Under the pieces are notes generated by a model. The model was not told the origin of the DNA and did no database searches. It worked only from the letters and a program-made list of their open reading frames with translations. A stretch of 44,376 bases of DNA from a virus. Its lineage: Duplodnaviria > Heunggongvirae > Uroviricota > Caudoviricetes. The translations under genes and the position numbers were made by a program. Position 1 is the first letter of the stretch; every line of letters begins with the position of its first letter. The DNA is taken from IMG/VR virus record IMGVR_UViG_2541047881_000004, positions 1 to 44,376 of that record; one strand, given 5' to 3'. Below are positions 10,973-27,859 of the stretch, piece after piece.

Positions 10973-11607
10973 TTGTCGGTATACCTCTCTCGTTTGCTCA
11001 GTTGTTCAGGAATATGGTGCAGCAGCTCGCCGTCACCACAGTAAATGGCGGCATGATTCGGCACAGATGAACCAAAACAGCACAGCAGCACATCGCCCGG
11101 CTGCGCCGCTGACAGCGGCACCTGATACAGCCCTGTGGCCTCCAGATTATCCAGATAGAGATTCTGACCGTTACGCCACCAGTCATCCTCACGATGAAAA
11201 TCCGGCATCTCAATCCCCGCCAGATGGTAAGCATCCCGGAACAGCGTGTAACAGTCCGTCACCCCGTGCTCAAAGAGCCGCCCGGTGAGATGCGGCACAC
11301 AGCGGAACTTATGAATCGCCCCCCGGCAGACCAGCCACCACGGCAAATCACTCTGCACCTGCAGTCGCCGGTCGGCCTCACTCAGCCAGGGCAGACCACC
11401 GGGGTGGCTGTGGACCAGCGCCACAACCTCACCCTGCATTTCTGCCTGCAGCCAGTCTTCCGGCGACATACGGAAATACGCCTCCGGCTCACCGGAGATA
11501 TTCACGCAGGGGAAATATCTTTCCCCCTCCGGCGCTCTCACCACGAAGCCGCACGACTCCGCTGGCGCACATCGCCGGGCGTGCGCCAATATATTGCTAT
11601 AGAGCAT
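10870..11607 (-). CDS. K: Tail assembly protein K (MPN/JAMM plus NlpC/P60-like)
   Basis: Lambda K-like (…VCGFVV…HSHPGG…); start set at ATG 11607 with an AGGAG RBS 5 nt upstream; the ORF is open to 11646 and lambda K is annotated shorter, so the start is uncertain. Confidence 0.85.
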   Translation of the reverse strand: MLYSNILAHARRCAPAESCGFVVRAPEGERYFPCVNISGEPEAYFRMSPEDWLQAEMQGEVVALVHSHPGGLPWLSEADRRLQVQSDLPWWLVCRGAIHKFRCVPHLTGRLFEHGVTDCYTLFRDAYHLAGIEMPDFHREDDWWRNGQNLYLDNLEATGLYQVPLSAAQPGDVLLCCFGSSVPNHAAIYCGDGELLHHIPEQLSKRERYTDKWQRRTHSLWRHRAWHASAFTGIYNDLAAASTFV

Positions 11608-11618
11608 GAGAACTCCTG

Positions 11619-11642
11619 ATAAAAAACCCAGCCGAAGCTGGG
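11619..11642 (-). terminator. Intrinsic terminator between ant and K
   Basis: Minus-strand RNA CCCAGC-UUCG-GCUGGG followed by UUUUUUAU. Confidence 0.6.
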
Positions 11643-11661
11643 TCATTTCGTTGGCAATCTG

Positions 11662-12597
11662 TTAGTAGTGATGCAGTGAAGGAGGTAATTCTTTGTTCTT
11701 AAGCCTTACCCATGCGGAAAGATTCGTTGGTCCGTCTGGCTCATTAATATCAACATCTCGTGTGTGATTGATTAAAACGTCTCTCGCCATTCCAATAACA
11801 TACGAGAACTCATGGCCGTAGTCGTAGCACCTGCCAAAATAGTTTGATTGAATTTGCTTTAGCGCCGGATACAGTTCGCGGAATAATGCCTGTGAGCGGT
11901 TGGCATAATCCCATAACCATACAAGGCTGTTTGCTTCTTTTGCAGAAAGCTCGTTGGTTTTCTTCTCTTGTTTTCCGATGAATTCGCCTTCAAGTGGAAT
12001 ACGAGCAGCAAGTGACAGTGCTTCGGTAAACTGCTCCTCACTGATTTCTTTGTACGAACATCCAAAATGGGATTTCAGTGACGACCACATGGTGATCATC
12101 GCCTTCGCCTGTTTTTCTTTTGGCAGAGACTGACCGCGACTCATGACGAGTTGTTTAATAGCTTCCTGCTGTTCAGTGGTGATTTTACCCGGCAACGCCT
12201 TTTTAGCTTTGCGCGGGTTAACCACATGGCCTTTAGTCCAGTAGTCATGCAGCACAGTAAAGCATTCTTCCTGGTACTGAATCAGTTTATCGCGGATGTC
12301 AGCACGAACTTTCTCAGGGTTGATGCTGAACAGCCATCCATTTAACTTCTTCAAAGGAAGGCAGAGTAGCTTACGAAGCTTCCCATCAGCAGCAACCATA
12401 TTCATATGAATACAGTTGAACTTATCTAGTTGTTTCATAAGTTTTTGTTGCTGAGTACCCCAGCTCATTCCGAGGTTTTCAACGATTGGCTTCATCGCAA
12501 CATATGCAACTCCTGCAGCCATGGCGGTGATAATTTGCTGACCGTTGAAGGATACGTAAGAGGTGCTCACTGCTTCTAAAATTGCTATACTATTCAT
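11662..12597 (-). CDS. ant: Antirepressor (P22 Ant-like)
   Basis: 312 aa from ATG 12597 ([10 protein letters not shown]...); sits downstream of an arc-like gene as in the P22 immI operon; longest ORF extends to 12720 but those codons overlap arc (alternative start 12678). Confidence 0.7.
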
Positions 12598-12669
12598 ATC
12601 AGTTTTCTCGTAGTTAACTGGTAATTTAGAAGCCTCAATGGTTGCAGCCATTGAGGCTTCGCTGTTTTT
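12598..12669 (+). ncRNA. sar: Candidate sar-like antisense RNA covering the ant translation-initiation region
   Basis: Plus-strand extended -10 element TGCTATACT (12583-12591) inside the 5' end of ant; about 72 nt downstream a 13-bp perfect stem (12629-12641 / 12648-12660, GAAGCCTCAATGG...CCATTGAGGCTTC) followed by GCTGTTTTT; by analogy with P22 sar. Confidence 0.35.
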
Positions 12670-12841
12670 AGCGACCATTCGCCACCTCTTCCCTAACACC
12701 TTTTGCCAGCAAACGAACAATTGCAGAGTTCAGAGATATACAGTCCATTTCCGCCAGGCGGCGAAGGTCTTCATTCAGCCGTGATGGAAGGCGAAGGTTG
12801 AGTTTGATATTTTTGCGCTCAGTGAAAAGTGTATCTTGCAT
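12668..12841 (-). CDS. arc: Arc-like ribbon-helix-helix repressor
   Basis: 57-aa ORF below the track size cutoff, translated by hand: [57 protein letters not shown]; matches the Arc/Mnt pattern NLR.P...L....AE....S.NS.I; GGAG RBS 8 nt upstream. Confidence 0.65.
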
Positions 12842-12948
12842 TATCTAATCTCCTTTATGTGGTGCCAAAGTGACGCCATGAAGGCCATAATGCCACCATT
12901 GAAATCGTATGGCAATATGGCACCATGATTTTTTTTGAGAGATTTGCA
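12842..12948. promoter_or_regulatory. Divergent promoter/operator region between arc-ant and mnt
   Basis: On the minus strand TTGCCA-17 nt-CATTAT reads toward arc; repeated ATGGTG(C/G)CA motifs are operator candidates. Confidence 0.4.
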
Positions 12949-13269
12949 ATGGCCGAAAAACAAGTAAAAGACTACGACAAGTTCAACCTCCGTTTTCCTG
13001 ACGGAATGCGAGATGCTATAGCTGAACGAGCCAAACGAAACGGGCGCTCTATGAACTCAGAGATTGTTCAGATACTGGAAGATGCCTTGAATGCAGAAAA
13101 TACACTCGGGGAAATAGCAGATAAAATTAACAGCGTCTCGGTTCCGCTAAATGTTGATGCGCTAGTTCAACTTCAAGCCCAGGTTATCGCCATGCAAAAA
13201 GAAATACAGGAAAAGTTCAGAGAGCAGAACGAAAAGTTGAGAGAACTGCTAAACAAAAAACCCACCTGA
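12949..13269 (+). CDS. mnt: Mnt-like ribbon-helix-helix repressor
   Basis: 106 aa from ATG 12949; ...FNLRFPDGMRDAIAERAKRNGRSMNSEIVQILEDAL closely matches P22 Mnt (...NGRSMNSELLQIVQDAL); transcribed divergently from arc-ant. Confidence 0.75.
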   Translation: MAEKQVKDYDKFNLRFPDGMRDAIAERAKRNGRSMNSEIVQILEDALNAENTLGEIADKINSVSVPLNVDALVQLQAQVIAMQKEIQEKFREQNEKLRELLNKKPT

Positions 13270-13276
13270 CGGTGGG
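13251..13276 (-). terminator. Intrinsic terminator downstream of L, overlapping the mnt stop codon
   Basis: Minus-strand RNA CCCACC-GUCA-GGUGGG followed by UUUUUUGUUU. Confidence 0.55.
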
Positions 13277-13285
13277 CATAATCCA

Positions 13286-13984
13286 TTACTGCGAAAGTTT
13301 GTTAATGGAAAGGAAGCCGCCAAAGTTGCCGACGTTATTGCGAAACTTACAGCCGCTCAGGCATTTGCTGCATTTATCCTTCGTGATATCGGACGTCGGC
13401 TGGTCATATTCATCCGCGACAGCCGGACCGTGATAACCGCACTCATCACCGCGATAGGTCCAGGTGCAGGTGTTGGCCAGCATGATACGTCCCGGAAAAA
13501 CAGCGCCGTCCGTTTCCGTCGGCGTGGACAGTACAAAGGAGGCACTGACCGCGCTCAGTTCGCTGCACTGCTCGATGCGCCAGCGACTGATCACCTCCTG
13601 CTCCGGATCGGCGTCGCTGTTTCCGTTGACGAAGTTCACCGCATCCAGAAAACGGGCGTAAACCTTACGCCTGACCACCGTTCCGCCGACCAGACTCTGC
13701 AGATCTTCCGCCATCCCGGTGACCATACCGTACAGGTTAGAAACCGTCAGCGTGGGGCGCGTACTGGTGCCTTTGCCATTCAGTTCAAAACCGCTCCCCT
13801 GAATGGGATACGCCTGATACTGTCGCCCCTGCCAGGTGACCGGCTCACCTTTTTCGTTCTGCTCATTACAGAAAAAATAACGTTCTCCACCGACCTCTGT
13901 CAGATCGATCTCCCAGAGCACCACGCTGGCCGACTGCTCCGCACGGGTGCATTCATTCAGTGTTTCCTGCCGGATATCCTGCAT
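13286..13984 (-). CDS. L: Tail tip protein L
   Basis: 232 aa, MQDIRQETLNECTRAEQSAS..., lambda L-like. Confidence 0.95.
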   Translation of the reverse strand: MQDIRQETLNECTRAEQSASVVLWEIDLTEVGGERYFFCNEQNEKGEPVTWQGRQYQAYPIQGSGFELNGKGTSTRPTLTVSNLYGMVTGMAEDLQSLVGGTVVRRKVYARFLDAVNFVNGNSDADPEQEVISRWRIEQCSELSAVSASFVLSTPTETDGAVFPGRIMLANTCTWTYRGDECGYHGPAVADEYDQPTSDITKDKCSKCLSGCKFRNNVGNFGGFLSINKLSQ

Positions 13985-14313: not shown

Positions 14314-16889
14314 CGTCCACCTCCGGAGAACAGGCCACCATCACGCATCTGCCCGGTCACAACATCCATTGCCGCCTTACGGGCTACGTCATAAACCGCC
14401 TTCAGCGCCTGTGGCCCTATCTGACCGTTCGTGCCGTCGTTGTTAATCACCACATGGTTATTCTGCTCAAACTTCCCGGACGCCTGCGACCGGCTGTCCG
14501 CCATGCTGCCCGGTGTACCGACATAACCGCCGGTGGCATAGCCGCGCATCAGCCGGTAAAGATTCCCCACGCCAATCCGGCTGGTTGCCTCCTTCGTGAA
14601 GACAAATTCACCACGATGAACAATCCCCGCAGGCTCATATTTGCCGCCGGTTCCCGTAAATCCTCCGGTCGCAAAATGGAATTTCGCCGCAGCTGCCTGA
14701 ATGGCTGTACCGCCTGACGCCGATGCGCCACCACCAACAGCTCCGCCAATGGCGCTGCCAATACTCCCGACAATCCCCACCATTGCCTGCTTAAGCAGAA
14801 TTTCTGTCATCATGGACAGCACGGAACGGGTGAAGCTGCGCCAGTTCTGCTCACTGCCGGTCAGCATCGCCGCCATATTCTGTGCAATACCATCAAAGGT
14901 CTGCGTGGCTGCACTTTTAACCTGCGACATACTGTCCGTGGCGCTCTCTTCCCACTCACTCCAGCCGGACTTCAGGCCTGCCATCCAGCTCCCGCGAAGC
15001 TGGTCTTCAGCCGCCCAGGTCTTTTTCTGCTCTGACATGACGTTATTCAGCGCCAGCGGATTATCGCCATACTGTTCCTTCAGGCGCTGTTCCGTGGCTT
15101 CCCGTTCTGCCTGCCGGTCAGTCAGCCCCCGGCTTTTCGCATCAATGGCGGCCCGTTTTGCCCGTTGCTGCTGTGCGAATTTATCCGCCTGCTGCGCCAG
15201 CGCGTTCAGGCGCTCCTGATACGTAACCTTGTCGCCAAGTGCAGCCAGCTGGCGTTTGTACTCCAGCGTCTCATCTTTATGCGCCAGCAGGGATTTCTCC
15301 TGTGCAGACAGCTGGCGACGTTGCGCCGCCTCCTCCAGTACCGCGAACTGACTTTCTGCCTTCCACAAATCCCGGCGCTGCTGGCTGATTTTCTCATTCG
15401 CTCCGGCATGCTTCTCCAGCATCCGGAGTTCTGCCTGAAGCGTCAGCAGGGCAGCATGAGCACTGTCTTCCTGACGATCGCCCGCAGACACTTTCACGCC
15501 GGACTGCTTCGGCTTTTTCAGCGTCGCTTCATAGTCCTTTTTCGCCGCCGCCATCAGCGTGTTGTAATCTGCCTGCAGGATTTTTCCGTCTTTCAGAGCC
15601 TTATTCAGTTCCTCCTGGCGGGCGGTATATTTCTCCAGCGGTGTCTGCAGGCGTTCGTAAGCCTTCTGCGCCTCTTCGGTATATTTCAGCCGTGATGCCT
15701 CAGACTCGGCCCAGTCCTTTGCTGCCATCTCTCTGGCCTTTTCAAGATCGGCCTGCAACGTGGCGGCTGAAAGCCCAAGTTGCGCATTCGCTCTGTCCTC
15801 CCATGCTCCCCGGAGATTGGCAAGAAATGCTGAGGTTTTACCGCGCCGGTGGCTCCGGCTCTGATACCACTGCCATTTTTTGTCCGCCTCATCAAAAGCC
15901 TTTTCTGCTTTCTCCAGCATTCCCTGGGCAGTGTCCGGGCGACCAATATCCAGCACCGAATCCCACATGGATTTGAATGCCCGCGCTGTCCTGTCTGCCC
16001 AGGTCTCCAGCGTGCCCATGTTCTCTTTCAGGCGGCGGGTCTGGTCATCAAACCCTTTCGTTGCGGCTTCGTTCGCCGCCTGCAATGCCCCGGCTTCATC
16101 TCCGGAACGCTGCAACTGAGCAACATACGCAATCTGCTCCGCCGTCACGTTATGGAACTGACGTGCCATCGCTGTCAGTCCCGACGTCGGGTCTGTGGTC
16201 AGCTTCCCGAAGGCTTCAGCGACCTTGTCCACCTCCACGCCGGATGCAGAGGAGAAACGCGCCACACTCTGGCTGATCGCCTCAAACTGCTCACCACCAC
16301 GCACACCGGCATTCACCAGCGCCGTCAGTGACTCGCTGGTCTGGTTAAACGTCAGCCCTGCCGCCTGCCCGGCTCTGGACAGGGCCAGAATACGATCTGC
16401 CGTCAGTCCCGCCTGATTGCCGGAAAGGACCAGCGTTTTGTTGAAATCGGACAGGGTTGAGTTGCCCTGATACCAGGCATACGCCAGCGCACCGGTCGCC
16501 ACCGCCAGCGAGGTGGCCCCCACCATCGGCAGGGTGATCGCACCGGCAAGCCCCCTGAACATGGGGATCATCCCGCCGAAGGAGTCCTTAACCTGACCAC
16601 CCTGTTGCAGCAGGATCAGCCACGGACTTTGCCCGCCTGCAAGCTGCGTGGCCACGTCGGTGAACTGTGCAGGCAGCATACGCATGGCGGCTTTATACTG
16701 CCCGACGGAAATCCCCGCTTTCTGTGCAGCCAGCGCCTGTCGGCTCAGCGACTGTTCAACGACTGCCGCTGTTTTTTTCGCATCAGTTTCCGTACCGGAA
16801 AAATGACGCCTGACTCTGGCCATCTGCTCGTCAAATCTGGCCGCATCCAGACTCAAATCAACGACCAGATCGCCTACCGGTTCAGCCAT
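14310..16889 (-). CDS. H: Tail tape measure protein H
   Basis: 859 aa, MAEPVGDLVVDLSLDAARFDEQMARVRRHF..., lambda H-like. Confidence 0.95.
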   Translation of the reverse strand: MAEPVGDLVVDLSLDAARFDEQMARVRRHFSGTETDAKKTAAVVEQSLSRQALAAQKAGISVGQYKAAMRMLPAQFTDVATQLAGGQSPWLILLQQGGQVKDSFGGMIPMFRGLAGAITLPMVGATSLAVATGALAYAWYQGNSTLSDFNKTLVLSGNQAGLTADRILALSRAGQAAGLTFNQTSESLTALVNAGVRGGEQFEAISQSVARFSSASGVEVDKVAEAFGKLTTDPTSGLTAMARQFHNVTAEQIAYVAQLQRSGDEAGALQAANEAATKGFDDQTRRLKENMGTLETWADRTARAFKSMWDSVLDIGRPDTAQGMLEKAEKAFDEADKKWQWYQSRSHRRGKTSAFLANLRGAWEDRANAQLGLSAATLQADLEKAREMAAKDWAESEASRLKYTEEAQKAYERLQTPLEKYTARQEELNKALKDGKILQADYNTLMAAAKKDYEATLKKPKQSGVKVSAGDRQEDSAHAALLTLQAELRMLEKHAGANEKISQQRRDLWKAESQFAVLEEAAQRRQLSAQEKSLLAHKDETLEYKRQLAALGDKVTYQERLNALAQQADKFAQQQRAKRAAIDAKSRGLTDRQAEREATEQRLKEQYGDNPLALNNVMSEQKKTWAAEDQLRGSWMAGLKSGWSEWEESATDSMSQVKSAATQTFDGIAQNMAAMLTGSEQNWRSFTRSVLSMMTEILLKQAMVGIVGSIGSAIGGAVGGGASASGGTAIQAAAAKFHFATGGFTGTGGKYEPAGIVHRGEFVFTKEATSRIGVGNLYRLMRGYATGGYVGTPGSMADSRSQASGKFEQNNHVVINNDGTNGQIGPQALKAVYDVARKAAMDVVTGQMRDGGLFSGGGR

Positions 16890-17720
16890 ACCGGACTCCT
16901 CCTGCGATCCCTTCTGATACTGTCATCAGCATTACGTCATCCTCCGTCATGTCCGCCACATCCGGGGAAACGGGGATAACTTCATTCCCGTCCGGACCAA
17001 AGCGGACGCCTCCGGCAAGCCCTGCCGCTTTCTGCATCAGCACATCATCTTCAGGCTCTTCGTCAGCCTCACGCCGGTTCAGCAGACTGAAATCCAGCGG
17101 ATGCATATCCGGATCGCTGAAAAACAGGCTGAGCACGGTGTACGTCAGCCCGGAAAAGTGCATATCCAGCAGAACATCATGAAAATAATGGGTACTGTAA
17201 AAGCGGTGCCAGTCGGCATACTCCGTGGATGACATCCCGGCAAGCATGGCACGCCAGTCGGGTCGCCCCATCTCTCGCGCCAGTTTCAGGGCAAAACTCA
17301 GCTCACCATCGAACACTTTCCCGCAGAAACAGGCTCTGCAGGCCCGGCGTCCTCTGTCTGTTCAGGAGCATCATTCACCACAAACTCATACATACCGGAC
17401 AGCCGGTACACCACGTTTTCAGCATGAGAAATTGCCTCCGTGGGCCAGGTGGTAAGCACTTCCTGCTCAATCTGTTTAACGGCTTCATTCATAGAAGGCA
17501 GCTTTGTCTTCTGCGGATGGTTATGCCACAGGGACATCGCCACCACAAAAGCGCCGGTTCTGATGGCGTCTTCCACAGTAAACTTCCGGTTGCTGTCTGA
17601 CTCCGCCTGTTCTGCCTGTCGTTTCATCAGGGCGAGATGCTCAATACGCTGCAGGGCTGACAGTTCAGAAAGCGTGACGGTCACACCGTTATGTTCAAAT
17701 GATTCGGTTTTCAGGAACAT
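16882..17720 (-). CDS. T: Tail assembly chaperone G-T, made by a -1 programmed ribosomal frameshift from G into the T frame
   Basis: T-frame ORF 16882..17316 (…VFDGELSFALKLAREMGRPDW) overlaps the 3' end of G; slippery heptamer G GGA AAG at 17316-17322 (minus strand). Confidence 0.85.
17298..17720 (-). CDS. G: Tail assembly chaperone G
   Basis: 140 aa, lambda G-like, ending ...SAGKCSMVS. Confidence 0.95.
   Translation of the reverse strand: MFLKTESFEHNGVTVTLSELSALQRIEHLALMKRQAEQAESDSNRKFTVEDAIRTGAFVVAMSLWHNHPQKTKLPSMNEAVKQIEQEVLTTWPTEAISHAENVVYRLSGMYEFVVNDAPEQTEDAGPAEPVSAGKCSMVS
17316..17322 (-). promoter_or_regulatory. G-T -1 frameshift slippery site GGGAAAG
   Basis: Read directly on the minus strand in the G frame as G GGA AAG, as in lambda. 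Confidence 0.85.
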
Positions 17721-17735
17721 CGCTGACTCTCCGGA

Positions 17736-18476
17736 TTAACTGGCGGTGACGTTGATTTCTGCAACCGCAGCAAGTTCACCATTACCGGATACGACCGGAA
17801 TGTTGACCTTGCCTGCAGCAACACCTTTCACGGTGATGGTCATACCACTGACCGACACGGTGGCTTTTGTTTTATCCGCAGACACCGCACGGAAGCTCTT
17901 GTCGGTTGCGCCTTCCGGCTGGAATGCCACGGTCAGCGTCGTGCTCTGCCCTTTCACCACCGAGGTGCTGGCAGGCGTCACGGTCATGCCGGTTGCCGCT
18001 GTTACCGTGCTGCGATCTTCTGCCATCGACGGACGTCCTACGTTGGTGACTTTCACCGTGCGGGTAATCACTTCCTTCGCCGTCACCGCCTTACCGATAC
18101 TGCTGACCCAGCCGCGGAACACATCGACCGTGCCGTTCGGGAAGCGGATTTTATAGGCACGGGTATCGCCTTCATTAAACCACGCCAGCAGCGCCTGCTG
18201 CCCCTGCTCTCCGGGCATCCACGCCAGCGTGAAGCTGGTATCTCCGGCAGATTTCTGCCCCTGCCCGGTCGCAGTCCAGTCTGCATCTTCATCATCGAGA
18301 TAGCTGTCGTCATAGGACTCAGCGGTCAGTTCGCCGGGCGTCAGGTCTTTAACTTTTGCCAGACGCGACCAGTCAACGTCTGAAAGCGGATTCGCATAAG
18401 GGTCACCGTTCCCCTTATAAACCCACAGGGTGGTCCCGGCACCTTTCACCGGTGCCAGAGGATTTGGTGTTGGCAT
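17736..18476 (-). CDS. V: Major tail tube protein V
   Basis: Lambda V-like with C-terminal Ig-like domain; start set at [14 protein letters not shown] by comparison with lambda V. Confidence 0.9.
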
Positions 18477-18483
18477 ATCGTCC

Positions 18484-18879
18484 TCACATTTCATAGGTAA
18501 TGACATAAGTCAGATCGGCTGAACTCCACAGGCCCGCATCATCGTCGCGCCGGTAGTCATAGCCACTGGCCACCATACTGGTGATCAAATCTGACAGTGC
18601 CGGGATATCGCTCATCACCGGATAAATCCGGGACTCCATCCACGAATCCAGCTCTGAATCCGGCACCTGAGCAGGCAGGAAAACTTCAATATGCAGCTCC
18701 GCCTGCCAGGTATCGCTGTCCAGCTCTTCGCCCGTGTATTCAGCGCCGGTGAGATAAACGGCAATTGCCGGAAAATCTTCCTCATCAAAAACAGCGGGGC
18801 GACCATCAAAAAGCGTCGCCCCGGTGTCATGCTTCTCCAGTGCATCCAGTACGGCTGCACGGAGTTCAGTATGTTTCAT
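18484..18879 (-). CDS. U: Tail terminator protein U
   Basis: 131 aa, lambda U-like. Confidence 0.95.
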
Positions 18880-19454
18880 CGCTTTATTACCATTCTCAGT
18901 TGATGCTGCAGCGCATAGCCCAGCTCTTTCGGGAGACGTTCACGCCGTATCCGTTCAATATTCTGTTTAAACGCCGTGGTCAGCGGCACCGCCATCGGGA
19001 TTTTCACCACATCAATGGGGTAACGGTTTTTCCCGGCCACACGCTGCATGACATGCCACCGGCCATTTTTCAGTTGCTGAATAAACGCGCCGGGAATACG
19101 ACGGTTTCCCACCACAAGCACACTGCCGCCACCTTTCAGGGCTGAACGCTGCCCCTTTTTACGACGCCTGCGTCGGGACAGGACAACCCGCGCGTTACCC
19201 AGCTTTATTACGGGCAAATCCCCCCGGTTAACCCTGATTCTGGCCTGCGGATTTTTGACCGTGGCCCTTTTCAGCCTGGCCCTTTCCTTTACCAGTTTCC
19301 GGCGTACCTTTGTCTCACGGGCAACCTGTGCCACCGACTGCGATATCGCGGATGAAGCAACGCGGTTAATGGCCATTGCGGCGGCACCGGGCACCGCCGT
19401 TCTGCTGATACGGCTGAGGTTTTCAACGGCCTGCTCAAGACCTTTTATGGCCAT
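18876..19454 (-). CDS. Z: Tail completion protein Z
   Basis: 192 aa, lambda Z-like. Confidence 0.95.
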   Translation of the reverse strand: MAIKGLEQAVENLSRISRTAVPGAAAMAINRVASSAISQSVAQVARETKVRRKLVKERARLKRATVKNPQARIRVNRGDLPVIKLGNARVVLSRRRRRKKGQRSALKGGGSVLVVGNRRIPGAFIQQLKNGRWHVMQRVAGKNRYPIDVVKIPMAVPLTTAFKQNIERIRRERLPKELGYALQHQLRMVIKR

Positions 19455-19465
19455 ACATCCCCCTT

Positions 19466-19819
19466 TCAGCGGCGACGGTTAACGGCAGGCGGTACGCCCC
19501 GCCCAAGCCAGAGATGACAGCTTCCGCCATCATCCGGCGAAATCCGGTCTATCCAGAAGTTTTCCTCACCGATGGTCAGCGTGTCGCCGCGCCGCAGCTG
19601 CCGCACATCATCAGTCCGGACAAACAGGGACGGGCTGGAGCCTTCAACGCGCACGCCCTGTCCGGCATAGCTGATATTTTCAGGGTCATCAAAAACACCA
19701 CGTATCACAGCACCGGACTGCTCACCGGATGTCATGGTGGCTGACGTTCCCATGTACCCGCGTATCGTTTCATCGGCGCAGGCAATGGCAGCATCGAACA
19801 GGTTATCGAAATCAGCCAC
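19466..19819 (-). CDS. FII: Head-tail connector protein FII
   Basis: 117 aa, lambda FII-like. Confidence 0.95.
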   Translation of the reverse strand: MADFDNLFDAAIACADETIRGYMGTSATMTSGEQSGAVIRGVFDDPENISYAGQGVRVEGSSPSLFVRTDDVRQLRRGDTLTIGEENFWIDRISPDDGGSCHLWLGRGVPPAVNRRR

Positions 19820-19830
19820 AGCGCCTCCCG

Positions 19831-20226
19831 TTATTGCATTCTGGCCAGGCCGCGCGCTGTCATTTCGGCTGCCACACCGGCAGAGACACGGAACGCCGTT
19901 CCCGGCAGCACAAATGCCACAGCCTCATCCCGCGTGGCGTGAAGTGCATCAGTATGCAGCGTCACCAGTGCCACAACCGTGACCAGAGCAGCCGTATCAG
20001 TCACGGTATCCGTCTGTGCTGATACCACCTCATTTTCATGTCCGGTCAGTGCATTTTCCGGGCTGACAGACGTGTCCTGACCGGCTGCGTCATCCGTGTC
20101 ATCAAGCTCCTCTTCCAGCTCTGCCACACGGAGCGCCAGTTCTTCTTTCGTCCCCGTCAGGCTGACATCACGGTTCAGTTGCTCACCCAGCGACCGGAGA
20201 CGGGCAATCAGTTCATCTTTCGTCAT
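19831..20226 (-). CDS. FI: DNA packaging protein FI
   Basis: Start at MTKDELIARLRSLGEQLN..., lambda FI-like with some central divergence. Confidence 0.9.
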   Translation of the reverse strand: MTKDELIARLRSLGEQLNRDVSLTGTKEELALRVAELEEELDDTDDAAGQDTSVSPENALTGHENEVVSAQTDTVTDTAALVTVVALVTLHTDALHATRDEAVAFVLPGTAFRVSAGVAAEMTARGLARMQ

Positions 20227-20267
20227 GAACTCCTCCACAGAGAGAAAATGGCCCCGAAGGGCCACGA

Positions 20268-21293
20268 TTACGCCAGTTGTACGGAAACGAACTCATCAGG
20301 GTCAGCCAGCAGCATCAGCGGTGCTGACTGAATCATGGTGAACTCACGCGCCGGATCGCCGGTGGTCACCCAGTTTTTCGGGTAACGGGCAGAGGCGTTA
20401 ATGCCTTCGCGCTGTGCGTCCGCATCCTGAATGCAGCCATAGGTGCGCAGACCGCGAGCCTGAGTGTTCCCCAGCACCATCGTGTTGTCCGGCAGGAAGT
20501 TCTTTTTGACGCCGTTTTCCACGTACTGTCCGGAATACACGACGATGGCCACATCGCCATACATTCCCTTATAGGACACCGCTTTGCCCAGGTCTTTTAC
20601 CGCTGTCTCCAGCTCGGAATGAGAGCCGCGACGGGTATCCAGCTTCTCCTTGACGGCTTTGAAGGAACGGAACAGCGCCCAGCCTTTCGGATCGAACACG
20701 ATGATATTCACCACGCCGCTGGCGTTCAGCGCGTAGGCTTCGATATCGTCGGTCGGGTCATACGTGGACTTGTCACGCTTGCTCCACTCCGTGCCGCCGG
20801 ACTGCGTGATGTTGTTCGCCGCACTGCGGCCCATATCCACCTCAACCGGATCGAAGGCTTCACCGGTCATGGTGTATTTGCCCTTGAGCACGGCAGAAAC
20901 GGCCTGCATCTCTTCGACCTGAGCAATGGCCAGCTCTTCGTCTCGCATGTTCTGCATGATGATGCGACGGCGGCGGTAAGCCGGGTCCGCCAGATTCTGT
21001 GGATCTTCATCCGGCAGGCGACGCAGGGTCATCTGCGGATTCACCTCATGCTTCGGCTTGACATATCCCGGTGTAAATTCAGAGGTGGAGCCGCCACGGG
21101 AGCGGATAACCTCACCGGAAACAATCGGCGAAACGTACAGCGCCATGTTTACCAGTCCAGGAATTTGTGAGAGATAGACTTTCTCCGTGGTGAAGGGATA
21201 GCTCTCACGGAAAAAGAGACGCAGAAACAGCGGATCAAACTTAAATTTCTGCTCATTTGCCGCCAGCAGTTGGGCGGTTGTGTACATCGACAT
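20268..21293 (-). CDS. E: Major capsid protein E
   Basis: Start at MSMYTTAQLLAANEQKF..., lambda E-like. Confidence 0.95.
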   Translation of the reverse strand: MSMYTTAQLLAANEQKFKFDPLFLRLFFRESYPFTTEKVYLSQIPGLVNMALYVSPIVSGEVIRSRGGSTSEFTPGYVKPKHEVNPQMTLRRLPDEDPQNLADPAYRRRRIIMQNMRDEELAIAQVEEMQAVSAVLKGKYTMTGEAFDPVEVDMGRSAANNITQSGGTEWSKRDKSTYDPTDDIEAYALNASGVVNIIVFDPKGWALFRSFKAVKEKLDTRRGSHSELETAVKDLGKAVSYKGMYGDVAIVVYSGQYVENGVKKNFLPDNTMVLGNTQARGLRTYGCIQDADAQREGINASARYPKNWVTTGDPAREFTMIQSAPLMLLADPDEFVSVQLA

Positions 21294-21348
21294 AAAAAAA
21301 TCCCGTAAAAAAAGCCGCACAGGCGGCCTTTAGTGATGAAGGGTAAGG

Positions 21349-21681
21349 TTAAACGATGCTGATTGCCGTTCCGGCAAACGCGGTCCGTTTTTTCGTCTCT
21401 TCGCTGGCAGCCTCCGGCCAGAGCACATCCTCATAACGGAACGTGCCGGACTTGTAGAACGTCAGCGTGTTGCTGGTCTGGTCAGCAGCAACCGCCAGAA
21501 TGCCAACGGCAGCACCGTCGGTGGTGCCATCCCATGCAACCAGCTTACGGGTGGAGGTGTCCAGCATCAGCGGGGTCATTGCAGGCGCTGTCGCACTCAA
21601 TCCGCCGGGCGCGGTTGCGGTATGAGCCGGGTCACTGTTGCCCAGCGGCTGGTAATGGGTAAAGGTTTCTTTGCTCGTCAT
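21349..21681 (-). CDS. D: Capsid decoration protein D
   Basis: Start at [12 protein letters not shown]..., lambda D-like. Confidence 0.95.
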
Positions 21682-21690
21682 AAACATCCC

Positions 21691-22296
21691 TTACACTGGT
21701 GTGTTCAGCAAATCGTTAACGGCATCTGATGCCGGGTTACCTGCAGCCAGAGGTGCCGGTGCACCCTGCATCAGACGATCCAGCGCAGTATCACTGCGCG
21801 CCTGTGCACTCTGTGGTGCTGCGGCCAGAATGCGACGGGCCGTTTCCACGGTCATTCCGGGGGTTTCTGCCAGCACGCGTGCCTGTTCTTCGCGTCCGTG
21901 AGCCTCCTCACAGTTGAGGATCCCCATAATGCGGCTGTTTTCTGCCGCAACCGCTGCGGTGATCTGCGCGTTCACGTCCGGCTGCGCCGCGCTGGCGTTC
22001 TCGCCCTCCGTCGCTTGCACCACGGTGGTGATGTCAGCCTGCGAGGCAGTAGCTGAAACAGTTGTTGATTGAGTCTCTTTGGTCATTCGCCCTCCTGAGA
22101 GACGGGATTTACGTGCATCCAGTGCATCACGCATGACGGTGATCGCATCGGTGCTGTTAACAAGTTCATCAGCCAGTCCGGCATCAATGGCCTCCTGACC
22201 GCTGTACACTGCAGCCTCGGTATCCAGCACAGCCTGCACAGACAGGCCGGTATATGCCGACACCTTCTGCGCAAACATCTGGCGGGTTGCATCCAT
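21691..22296 (-). CDS. Nu3: Scaffolding protein Nu3, nested in-frame in the 3' part of C
   Basis: In-frame internal ATG 22296 giving MDATRQMFAQKVSAYTGLSVQ..., placed by offset from the lambda map. Confidence 0.8.
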   Translation of the reverse strand: MDATRQMFAQKVSAYTGLSVQAVLDTEAAVYSGQEAIDAGLADELVNSTDAITVMRDALDARKSRLSGGRMTKETQSTTVSATASQADITTVVQATEGENASAAQPDVNAQITAAVAAENSRIMGILNCEEAHGREEQARVLAETPGMTVETARRILAAAPQSAQARSDTALDRLMQGAPAPLAAGNPASDAVNDLLNTPV

Positions 22297-22990
22297 CCGG
22301 GACTGCAGTGTCTCCCGGACGTCATCCGGAAGATGGCTGTAGGGGTTGCCATCCACCTTATGGCTGCCGCTGTAAATCAGCGTGATTTCCACACCCTGTT
22401 TCTCCAGCGCAGCACCGTAATTGCTGTGAGCCATCATGACGCCGATGGAGCCTGTCCGGGCGGTCTGCGTGACCAGACGCCGGGAGGCGGCACTGGCAAG
22501 CAGCTGACCTGCACTGCAGTTCATGTCGTTGGCCAGCGCCCATACCGGTTTTATGTCACGCACACGGGCGATGATGTCAGCGCAGTCAAATGCTCCCGCC
22601 ACCATTCCGCCTGGCGTGTCCATATCGAGCAGAATGCCGTCCACCATCGGATCGCTGGAAGCCTGTTGCAGACGGGCGATAATGCCGTTGTAACCGGTCA
22701 TCCCCGAATACGGCTGCAGCGCCCGCGTCCGGCTGACCAGCGTGCCGGACACCGGCAGCACGGCGATGCCGTTCATGACCTGATAACTGCGGGCCTGTCG
22801 TGGTCCGTCATCATCACCGGATAACGCCAGCGTCGCGGGTGCCTCTCCGGCAGTCAGGCTGTCGCCGGACACCGCATCCGTCAGGCGGCTGATCCCAAGC
22901 TGGCCTGCAAGTGCACAAAAGAAAACCCGCGCATAGGCGGGTTCAAGCATCAGCGGCTCATTAAAGGCCATGCTGGCAATATGCGGGAGA

Positions 22991-23010
<20 letters not shown>
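21691..23010 (-). CDS. C: Capsid assembly protease C (GTG start)
   Basis: GTG at 23010 gives VTAELRNLPHIASMAFNEPLMLEPAYARVFF... as lambda C; overlaps the 3' end of B. Confidence 0.9.
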
Positions 23011-26691
<3,681 letters not shown>

Positions 26692-26717
<26 letters not shown>

Positions 26718-27237
26718 TCAGCAACCCCGGTATCAGTTCATCCAGCGCGGCTGCTTTGTTCATGGCTTTGATGATATCCCGTTTCAGGAAATCAACATGT
26801 CGGTTTTCCAGTTCCGGAAAACGCCGCTGCACCGACAGGGGGATCCCGTCGAGAATACTGGCAATTTCACCTGCGATCCGCGACAGCACGAAAGTACAGA
26901 ATGCGGTTTCCACCACTTCAGCGGAGTCTCTGGCATTTTTCAGCTCCTGTGCGTCGGCCTGCGCACGCGTAAGTCGATGGCGTTCGTACTCAATAGTCCC
27001 TGGCTGGAGATCTGTCTCGCTGGCCTGCCGCAGTTCTTCAACTTCCCGGCGCAGCTTTTCGTTCTCAATTTCAGCATCCCTTTCGGCATACCATTTTATG
27101 GCGGCGGCAGAGTCATAAAGCACCTCATTACCCTTGCCACCGCCTCGCAGAACGGGCATTCCCTGCTCCTGCCAGTTCTGAATGGTACGGATACTCGCAC
27201 CGAAAATGTCAGCCAGCTGCTTTTTGTTGACTTCCAT
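26692..27237 (-). CDS. Nu1: Terminase small subunit Nu1
   Basis: 181 aa, MEVNKKQLADIFGASIRTIQNWQEQGMPVLRGGGKGNE..., lambda Nu1-like. Confidence 0.95.
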
Positions 27238-27299
27238 TGTTCATTCCACGGACAAAAACAGAGAAAGGAAACGACAGAGGCCAAAAAGCCCGTTTTCAG

Positions 27300-27460
27300 C
27301 ACCTGTCGTTTCCTTTCTTTTCAGGGGGTGTTTTAAATAAAAACATTAAGTTACGGCGAAGAAGAACGGAAACGCCTTAAACCGGAAAATTTTCATAAAT
27401 AGCGAAAACCCGCGCGCCTTCCGCCCCGTAACCTGTCGGATCGCCGGAAAGGACCCGCAA
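27300..27460 (-). other. cos packaging site; cosN 12-nt cohesive-end segment at 27415-27426
   Basis: Minus strand reads ...GATCCGACAGGTTACG GGGCGGAAGGCG CGCGGGTTTTCGCTATTTATGAAAATTTTCCGG; flanks match lambda as recalled, the cohesive-end 12-mer differs in its last six bases; lies about 190 nt upstream of Nu1 as in lambda. Confidence 0.8.
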
Positions 27461-27625
27461 AATGATAATAATTATCATCTGCATGTCACAACGTGCATCT
27501 ACGCCATCAAACCACGTCAAATAATCAATTATGACGCAGGTATCATATTAATTGATCTGCATCAACTTAACGTAAAAACAACTTCAGACAATACAAATCA
27601 GCGACACTGAATACGGGACAACCTC

Positions 27626-27859
27626 ATGTCAACGAAGAACAGAACCCGCAGAACAACAACCCGCAACATCCGCTTTCCTAACCAAATGATTGAACAAATT
27701 AACATCGCTCTTGATCAAAAAGGGTCCGGGAATTTCTCAGCCTGGGTCATTGAAGCCTGCCGCCGGAGACTGTGCTCAGAAAAAAGAGTTTCTCCTGAAG
27801 CAAACAAAGAAAAGAGTGACATTACTGAATTGCTCAGAAAACAGATCAGACCAGATTGA
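27626..27859 (+). CDS. Ribbon-helix-helix protein, homologue of the lambda cos-proximal hypothetical gene (recalled as orf-79)
   Basis: 77 aa, MSTKNRTRRTTTRNIRFPNQMIEQINIALDQKGSGNFSAWVIEACRRRL...; near-identical to the lambda right-end ORF as recalled. Confidence 0.8.
   Translation: MSTKNRTRRTTTRNIRFPNQMIEQINIALDQKGSGNFSAWVIEACRRRLCSEKRVSPEANKEKSDITELLRKQIRPD

Follow-up and report, generated by a model that had tools for sequence, protein, structure and literature searches.

A lambda-type cos region in a lambda-like prophage

The window, i.e. the whole 44,376-nucleotide stretch of DNA analysed here, is a lambda-like prophage in reverse orientation, with the lysis genes lying to the right of cos. 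When searched by tblastn with lambda proteins as queries, it was found to encode Nu1, A, W, B, C, D, E, FI, FII, Z, U, V, G, H, M, L, K, I, J, Q, S, R and Rz at full length, with 83-100% identity to lambda from Nu1 to J; the same search revealed no truncated, missing or frameshifted packaging, head or tail gene in the window. In comparison with lambda, an insert of ~1.7 kb is located between the tail genes L and K (window 11470-13288). Its minus-strand open reading frame (11662-12720; 352 aa) codes for a P22-type antirepressor with P22_AR_N and P22_AR_C domains and its plus-strand open reading frame (12925-13269; 114 aa) for a divergent Arc-like ribbon-helix-helix repressor; this insert looks like an immI-like ant/arc module inside the tail operon.

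The cos site was delimited by alignment to lambda (NC_001416) and to DE3, in whose record the cos site is annotated, and the two alignments agree (Table 1). On the minus strand, the window between 27300 and 27520 reads ...CCGACAGGTTACG GGGCGGAAGGCG CGCGGGTTTTCGCTATTTATG..., also given as ...GGGTCCTTTCCGGCGATCCGACAGGTTACG GGGCGGAAGGCG CGCGGGTTTTCGCTATTTATGAAAATTTTCCGGTTTAAGGCGTTTCCGTTCTT...; the cosN 12-mer is numbered from position 1 at 27426 to position 12 at 27415. A blastn alignment of the window with lambda is interrupted exactly at this 12-mer, window 15904-27414 corresponding to lambda 11527-13 and window 27427-27788 to lambda 48502-48141.

Table 1. Coordinates in the window of the cos site elements and of the adjacent terminase genes
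Feature	Position	Strand	Description	Basis
GGGTCCT motif	27450..27456	-	Identical to lambda 48473-48479 (-30 to -24)	Alignment
cosN 12-mer	27415..27426	-	Cohesive end GGGCGGAAGGCG (lambda: GGGCGGCGACCT)	Alignment to lambda and DE3
Right half of cosN	27415..27420	-	Variable half (positions 7-12), AAGGCG versus CGACCT in lambda, 5 of 6 bases different
16-bp cosN core	27413..27428	-	12-mer plus the CG dinucleotide outside each inferred nick site
cosB R3	27362..27377	-	Lambda bp 50-65, AGGCGTTTCCGTTCTT, identical to lambda	Alignment
Remaining cosB up to the Nu1 start	27238..27361	-	Lambda-like, scattered substitutions, spacing 1 bp shorter
Nu1	26692..27237	-	Small terminase subunit, 181 aa, 98.3% identical to lambda Nu1
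A	24792..26717	-	Large terminase subunit (cosN-nicking endonuclease), 641 aa, 99.7% identical to lambda gpA

The first-pass annotation had set the 12-mer against the lambda end and reported that it differs from it at five of 12 positions between matching flanks. Base-by-base comparison with NC_001416 agrees with this count, and the alignments to lambda and DE3 show that both the lambda end used there and the matching flanks were correct; between -31 and +70, the only mismatch to lambda outside the 12-mer is at -17. The substitutions are C>A at position 7, G>A at 8, A>G at 9, C>G at 10 and T>G at 12. Position 11 is C in both sequences, and the further remark that the last six bases differ consequently holds for five of them. 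The left half of the 12-mer, GGGCGG (positions 1-6), is identical to lambda and CG dinucleotides adjoin both inferred nicks, 12 bp apart (...TTACG / 12-mer / CGCGGG...). Five of the 6 bp of the right half are changed, but a single one of the 89 flanking bp; at a regional background divergence of ~2.6%, such clustering is far stronger than this background would give. By inspection, no simple inversion or shift that would turn CGACCT into AAGGCG is apparent.

The computed two-fold symmetry of the 16-bp core is 8/16 bp in the window and 10/16 in lambda, the latter figure being the one given in the literature (PMC9026076). The symmetric pairs 2/11, -1/13 and -2/14 are kept and 4/9 is gained, whereas two of the five symmetric base pairs of lambda (3/10 and 6/7) are absent from the variant. 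Since the GC content is 10/12 in both alleles and the predicted nearest-neighbour Tm of the variant (46.3 C) is within 1.5 C of that of lambda (47.8 C), annealing of the ends should be unaffected.

On the cosB side, lambda bp 13-70 are identical in the window, and the spacing between R3 (coordinates taken from PMC9026076) and cosN is therefore unchanged. Farther into cosB, a 1-bp shortening is located at window 27277-27290 (lambda bp ~137-150), as a result of which the ATG of Nu1 is at position 190 and not 191. On the other side of cosN, the GGGTCCT motif, which we take to be cosQ, lies about 30 bp upstream. A cosB shortening similar to that of the window is also seen in Lambda_ev099, the closest match to the right of cos. 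This genome is uninformative as to the allele, because the right half of its cosN is missing: the record (LR597635.1; match L124, 1-33) starts with a Nextera transposase adapter, TCGTCGGCAGCGTCAGATGTGTATAAGAGACAG, followed by lambda from bp ~45, and it ends with ...GTTACGGGGC, without the rest of cosN and ~40 bp beyond. The adapter at the start and the missing cosN sequence indicate that its ends are assembly artefacts and not cos ends.

The window site shares with lambda-type cos the left half of cosN, the CG dinucleotides, the cosQ motif, R3 with its spacing and the adjacent Nu1 and A genes; the canonical right half CGACCT is the one defining feature that it lacks, with five of six bases changed. 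According to published genetics, there is no functional requirement for the right half, and its divergence does not exclude membership. Judged on its sequence, the site classifies as a lambda-type cos by every testable defining feature except this non-essential half.

Identical terminases adjoin both alleles

Five clustered substitutions beside the bottom-strand nick could in principle alter endonuclease contacts, and altered terminase nicking was one of the consequences considered in the first-pass annotation. A diverged gpA/Nu1 pair that had co-adapted with the site might then read the changed right half and confer a new nicking and packaging specificity. We regard this as very improbable. 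Both terminase subunits of the window are nearly those of lambda (Table 1), and its gpA is a single residue away from gpAs that are found beside a canonical cosN. When gpA proteins were extracted from 104 loci, their median identity was 98.8% between allele classes, as compared with 98.4% and 98.9% within classes; no alignment column separates the classes and no gpA residue co-varies with the allele in these 104 loci. Five distinct 641-aa gpA sequences are each 100% identical beside canonical and variant 12-mers. The same is true of several Nu1 sequences, the commonest of which are common to both alleles. No terminase change is thus needed for the variant, and this speaks against altered nicking. 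The unchanged R3 also argues against co-adaptation, as does the fact that lambda TerL does not discriminate between the lambda and N15 alleles of cosN, the yields being equal on both (PMC4669245).

Distribution of the variant allele

When IMG/VR was scanned for 12-mers of any sequence between lambda flanks, at least 120 contigs were retrieved, nearly all of them canonical and at least two with the variant. The exact variant 34-mer (12-mer plus flanks) is present in 13 IMG/VR contigs, and a looser pattern (left ACG only, non-T at position 12) matched at least 99 contigs. In total, ~80 IMG/VR contigs among the matches listed have the variant 12-mer. Among the matches listed, we counted the canonical GGGCGGCGACCT at least 129 times, the variant GGGCGGAAGGCG 82 times (window included), GGGCGTCAGGCG 12 times, GGGCGGCAGGCG four times, GGGCGGCAGACG three times and nine rarer alleles once or twice each; these tallies are shaped by the search patterns and are not frequencies. 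In the lambda-type cos sites listed, the variant ranks second in frequency among the 12-mers. In all 14 alleles tallied positions 1-5 are invariant, and among the matches listed positions 7-10 and 12 are polymorphic. Position 6, in the left half, is also altered in GGGCGTCAGGCG (12 IMG/VR loci listed, including L160, L163, L166 and L168); wherever the available sequence suffices, this allele goes with a 165-aa Nu1 reading frame and not with the 181-aa one.

In complete E. coli genomes, the variant was searched with a 52-mer centred on it at a coverage of at least 80%, the flanks being too short to seed canonical sites. It occurs in ~84 of 5426 genomes, both on chromosomes and on ~46-kb plasmids (16 places on plasmids). 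For the canonical 52-mer, the corresponding figure is 4454 genomes, which probably includes widely shared cryptic prophages, and the variant is ~50-fold rarer. This rarity (~84 versus 4454) is compatible with a mild fitness cost.

The variant is also carried by two deposited phage genomes, PhiR46_1 (host E. coli ECOR13) and YDC107_1, whose record assigns it to Ravinvirus (N15-like). The PhiR phages belong to the panel of Brenes and Laub 2025, temperate lambda relatives that were used in plaquing assays (PMC13190303). PhiR46_1 is probably viable, judging from its GenBank record and from the use in that paper of sister phages of the same panel. None of the phage-collection records starts at a GGGCGGAAGGCG end, and the nick positions and packaging efficiency of the variant consequently rest on homology. 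The allele is unannotated in every record inspected. When it was searched outside the lambda-type cosB context, five further lambda-type sites with slightly different flanks were found, together with two contigs with an unrelated flank and three GC-rich matches unrelated to cos, which are probably due to chance.

Some of the matching loci are of interest in their own right. In E. coli APEC E14033 (L138; NZ_CP126948, 26154-38455), an element of ~11 kb interrupts the major capsid gene of a lambda-like prophage with this cosN variant, unlike in the window, whose own capsid gene is intact. This element encodes an integrase, a primase, an SSB, a major capsid protein and a head decoration protein of its own, and it resembles the helper-embedded satellites of bioRxiv 10.1101/2022.07.18.500453. 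Four other records, all genome assemblies of unrelated bacteria, from Raphidiopsis brookii D9 (L145), Aeromicrobium sp. PE09-221 (L146), Archangium violaceum Cb vi76 (L147) and the Alicyclobacillus fastidiosus plasmid unnamed3 (L148), contain a lambda cos fragment and no other lambda sequence. The fragment is at most ~400 bp long and consists of lambda 48299-48502 joined to 1-199 (bp 1-211 only in L147) with ~99% identity; these fragments are most likely leftover cosmid or fosmid vector sequence in the assemblies.

The first-pass annotation had proposed that the 12-mer could be a natural cos variant, and its recurrence bears this out, as it is found in phage genomes that have been deposited and in numerous independent assemblies. 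A sequencing or assembly error at the 12-mer, which the same annotation had named as a possible refutation, can practically be dismissed: short GC-rich runs can be error-prone, a general point with nothing specific to this site, but dozens of independent assemblies, produced by different projects on different platforms, contain the identical 12-mer. Related alleles also exist, with the right halves CAGGCG, CAGACG and AAGGCT, or as GTCAGGCG.

The 12-mer is uncoupled from its flanks

The closest relatives of the window in terms of flanking sequence carry the canonical allele. Its exact left 200 bp are found at five canonical loci (L004, L142, L020, L052 and L103), and its right 200 bp are identical to those of the canonical locus L107. 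The latter is the nearest neighbour of the window, with three differences in 400 bp, and is closer to it than any other variant locus. No complete RefSeq E. coli genome matches the window exactly; over 6.1 kb around cos the best complete-genome match, TUM1880 (98.1%), also has a canonical cosN. The 12-mer therefore moves independently of its background. More generally, the variant allele is found on 39 left-flank and 23 right-flank haplotypes. In the right 100 bp of cosN, eight haplotypes are common to both alleles and cover 41 of 77 variant loci, and in the left flank two haplotypes are common to both; only such haplotype-sharing counts were used, as the variant loci span several unrelated left-arm families and ungapped left-flank linkage is noisy. 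From this pattern, we infer that the 12-mer forms a unit that predates both arms and has been shuffled relative to them.

Terminase-made breaks such as cos stimulate recombination. Moreover, cohesive ends with mismatches can persist until replication, and either allele can then segregate (PMC4669245). The uncoupling of the 12-mer from its flanks is probably due to recombination at the cos cut or close to it, together with mismatched ends that resolve to either allele.

These distributions also bear on the suggestion, made in the first-pass annotation, of defective packaging in a decaying prophage. The nicking of such a site would have been lost, and the changes would persist as packaging would no longer be needed. 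The ~50-fold rarity of the variant in complete E. coli genomes is in line with such a defect. Nevertheless, we consider it highly unlikely. All morphogenesis genes of the window are intact, Nu1 to J being of full length. Where 2.7 kb or more of sequence follows cos, a full-length 641-aa gpA is encoded at 40 of 47 variant loci as against 39 of 65 canonical ones, and intact gpA is thus kept more often beside the variant. The diversity of left and right haplotypes, on chromosomes as well as on N15-like plasmids, implies spread by infection, and one of the deposited phages that carry the allele has a propagation host. Finally, decay would scatter mutations, whereas the same five changes are seen in ~80 assemblies, with cosQ, the left half of cosN and R3 untouched.

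A more speculative scenario concerns selection on the ends themselves. At least two old, diverged cohesive-end families (xGACCT and xAGGCG/xAGACG) might be maintained as end-compatibility types, the 5/12 mismatch blocking hybrid chromosomes or end-joining with co-resident canonical phages. Among the matches listed, the alleles do fall into an xGACCT-like and an xAGGCG/xAGACG-like family with few intermediates, and the divergence of the 12-mer is far above that of its flanks, which suggests an old, maintained polymorphism; a mismatch of only 2 bp between ends already lowers the viable yield ~4-fold (PMC4669245). However, a hexamer under relaxed constraint beside a recombination hotspot could give the same pattern, and the sampling among the matches listed was shaped by the search patterns. 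We therefore hold this scenario to be improbable, albeit slightly less so than a co-adapted terminase or a decayed site, and it could add to the explanation that we favor rather than replace it. If it were true, one terminase would cut both families and mixed-type chromosomes or end-joined products could not cyclise; the 12-mer would then be a small tag for reproductive isolation or anti-interference, shuffled between backgrounds by breakage at the cos nicks.

A natural right-half allele of a probably working cos site

Published genetics and biochemistry from the Feiss laboratory describe the two halves of cosN as different in function. Substitutions in bp 7-12 have hardly any effect, whereas changes in the left half are harmful; G2C lowers the yield ~10-fold while the symmetric change C11G has no cost, and the CG dinucleotides beside the nicks are highly conserved (PMC4669245). 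In addition, bp 1-4 of cosN are cited in the literature as conserved. The first-pass annotation had considered cosN to be very conserved among lambda-like cos phages: this is right for the left half and for the nick-flanking CG, but the right half tolerates mutation and is naturally variable (PMC4669245). By its sequence, the window allele keeps every element that published studies have flagged as important, namely bp 1-6, C11, the CG flanks, R3 and the spacing. It is a common natural allele in a half already known to tolerate change, and the difference is thus an ordinary one that implies no defect.

Altogether, the window very probably harbors a working lambda-type cos with a natural minority allele of the right half, and a lambda-type terminase without modification would cut it at the homologous positions. 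The Nu1/A terminase, encoded immediately downstream, would bind the unchanged R3 of cosB, and this binding would place the gpA endonuclease on cosN. There, gpA is predicted to nick the two positions used in lambda, next to the conserved CG dinucleotides, and to produce 12-nt 5' overhangs reading GGGCGGAAGGCG. The variable half adjoins cosB, and nicking in this half is set by anchoring and not by base-specific contacts; its sequence can therefore change while the terminase stays the same. The published data on tolerance concern single changes and the 2-bp N15 difference; for an allele with five simultaneous changes, the nick positions and efficient packaging are presumed by extension from these cases.

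Natural variation of the right half of cosN was already known (PMC4669245). What goes slightly beyond the literature found is the second rank of this allele among the matches listed, its coexistence with 100% identical terminases and its uncoupling from the flanks. The current understanding of lambda packaging is unchanged; the allele provides a natural five-substitution test of the view of the Feiss laboratory that anchoring, and not a reading of the sequence, positions the cosB-proximal half of cosN. A 12-mer uncoupled from both flanks is also a clear example of cos as a recombination boundary. On the practical side, cos finders keyed to the canonical 12-mer will overlook ~1-2% of the lambda-like prophages of E. 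coli.

Comparison with known cosN alleles

A full-text search for the exact 12-mer or its reverse complement returned only unrelated plant and Streptomyces papers, and the names of the PhiR phages gave no match. Thus, GGGCGGAAGGCG was found in no searchable paper. Papers that cite Vahanian et al. 2017 (Virology 509:140) indicate that natural right-half cosN variation is also the subject of that survey, and the allele may already be tabulated there.

The window resembles lambda (NC_001416) in the GGGTCCT motif, positions 1-6 and 11 of cosN, the CG dinucleotides, bp 13-70 and Nu1/A; it differs from it at cosN positions 7, 8, 9, 10 and 12, in the symmetry of the core (8 versus 10/16) and in a cosB spacer that is 1 bp shorter. 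Among the natural alleles already described, those of N15 and phiD326 carry changes relative to lambda at positions 9 and 12 and that of Gifsy-1 at positions 8, 9 and 11 (PMC4669245), while the cosN of mEp213/LLS is reported as GGGCGGCGCGCT (PMC12315714). The N15 cosN, GGGCGGCGTCCG, also keeps the left half GGGCGG and has in common with the window the T12G change beside the nick. However, N15 departs from lambda at these two positions only, and both its cosB, with a single R3, and the specificity of its TerS are its own, whereas the window keeps the cosB of lambda. In Gifsy-1 and mEp213/LLS the variation is likewise confined to bp 7-12 and bp 1-6 are kept, but other bases are involved and these are more distant phages with different head genes; unlike them, the window carries its allele in a packaging module that is otherwise almost entirely that of lambda.

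The best overall phage match to the cos region of the window is PhiR70_1 (L002; PV340577.1, locus ~1862), which carries GGGCGGAGACCT, i.e. C7A only, one step from the canonical sequence. Together with GGGCGGCAGGCG, GGGCGGCAGACG, GGGCGGAAGGCT and GGGCGTCAGGCG, this allele is found with flanks and cosB as in the window. These five related alleles differ from GGGCGGAAGGCG by one to four bases and form a series that links the allele of the window to the canonical one.
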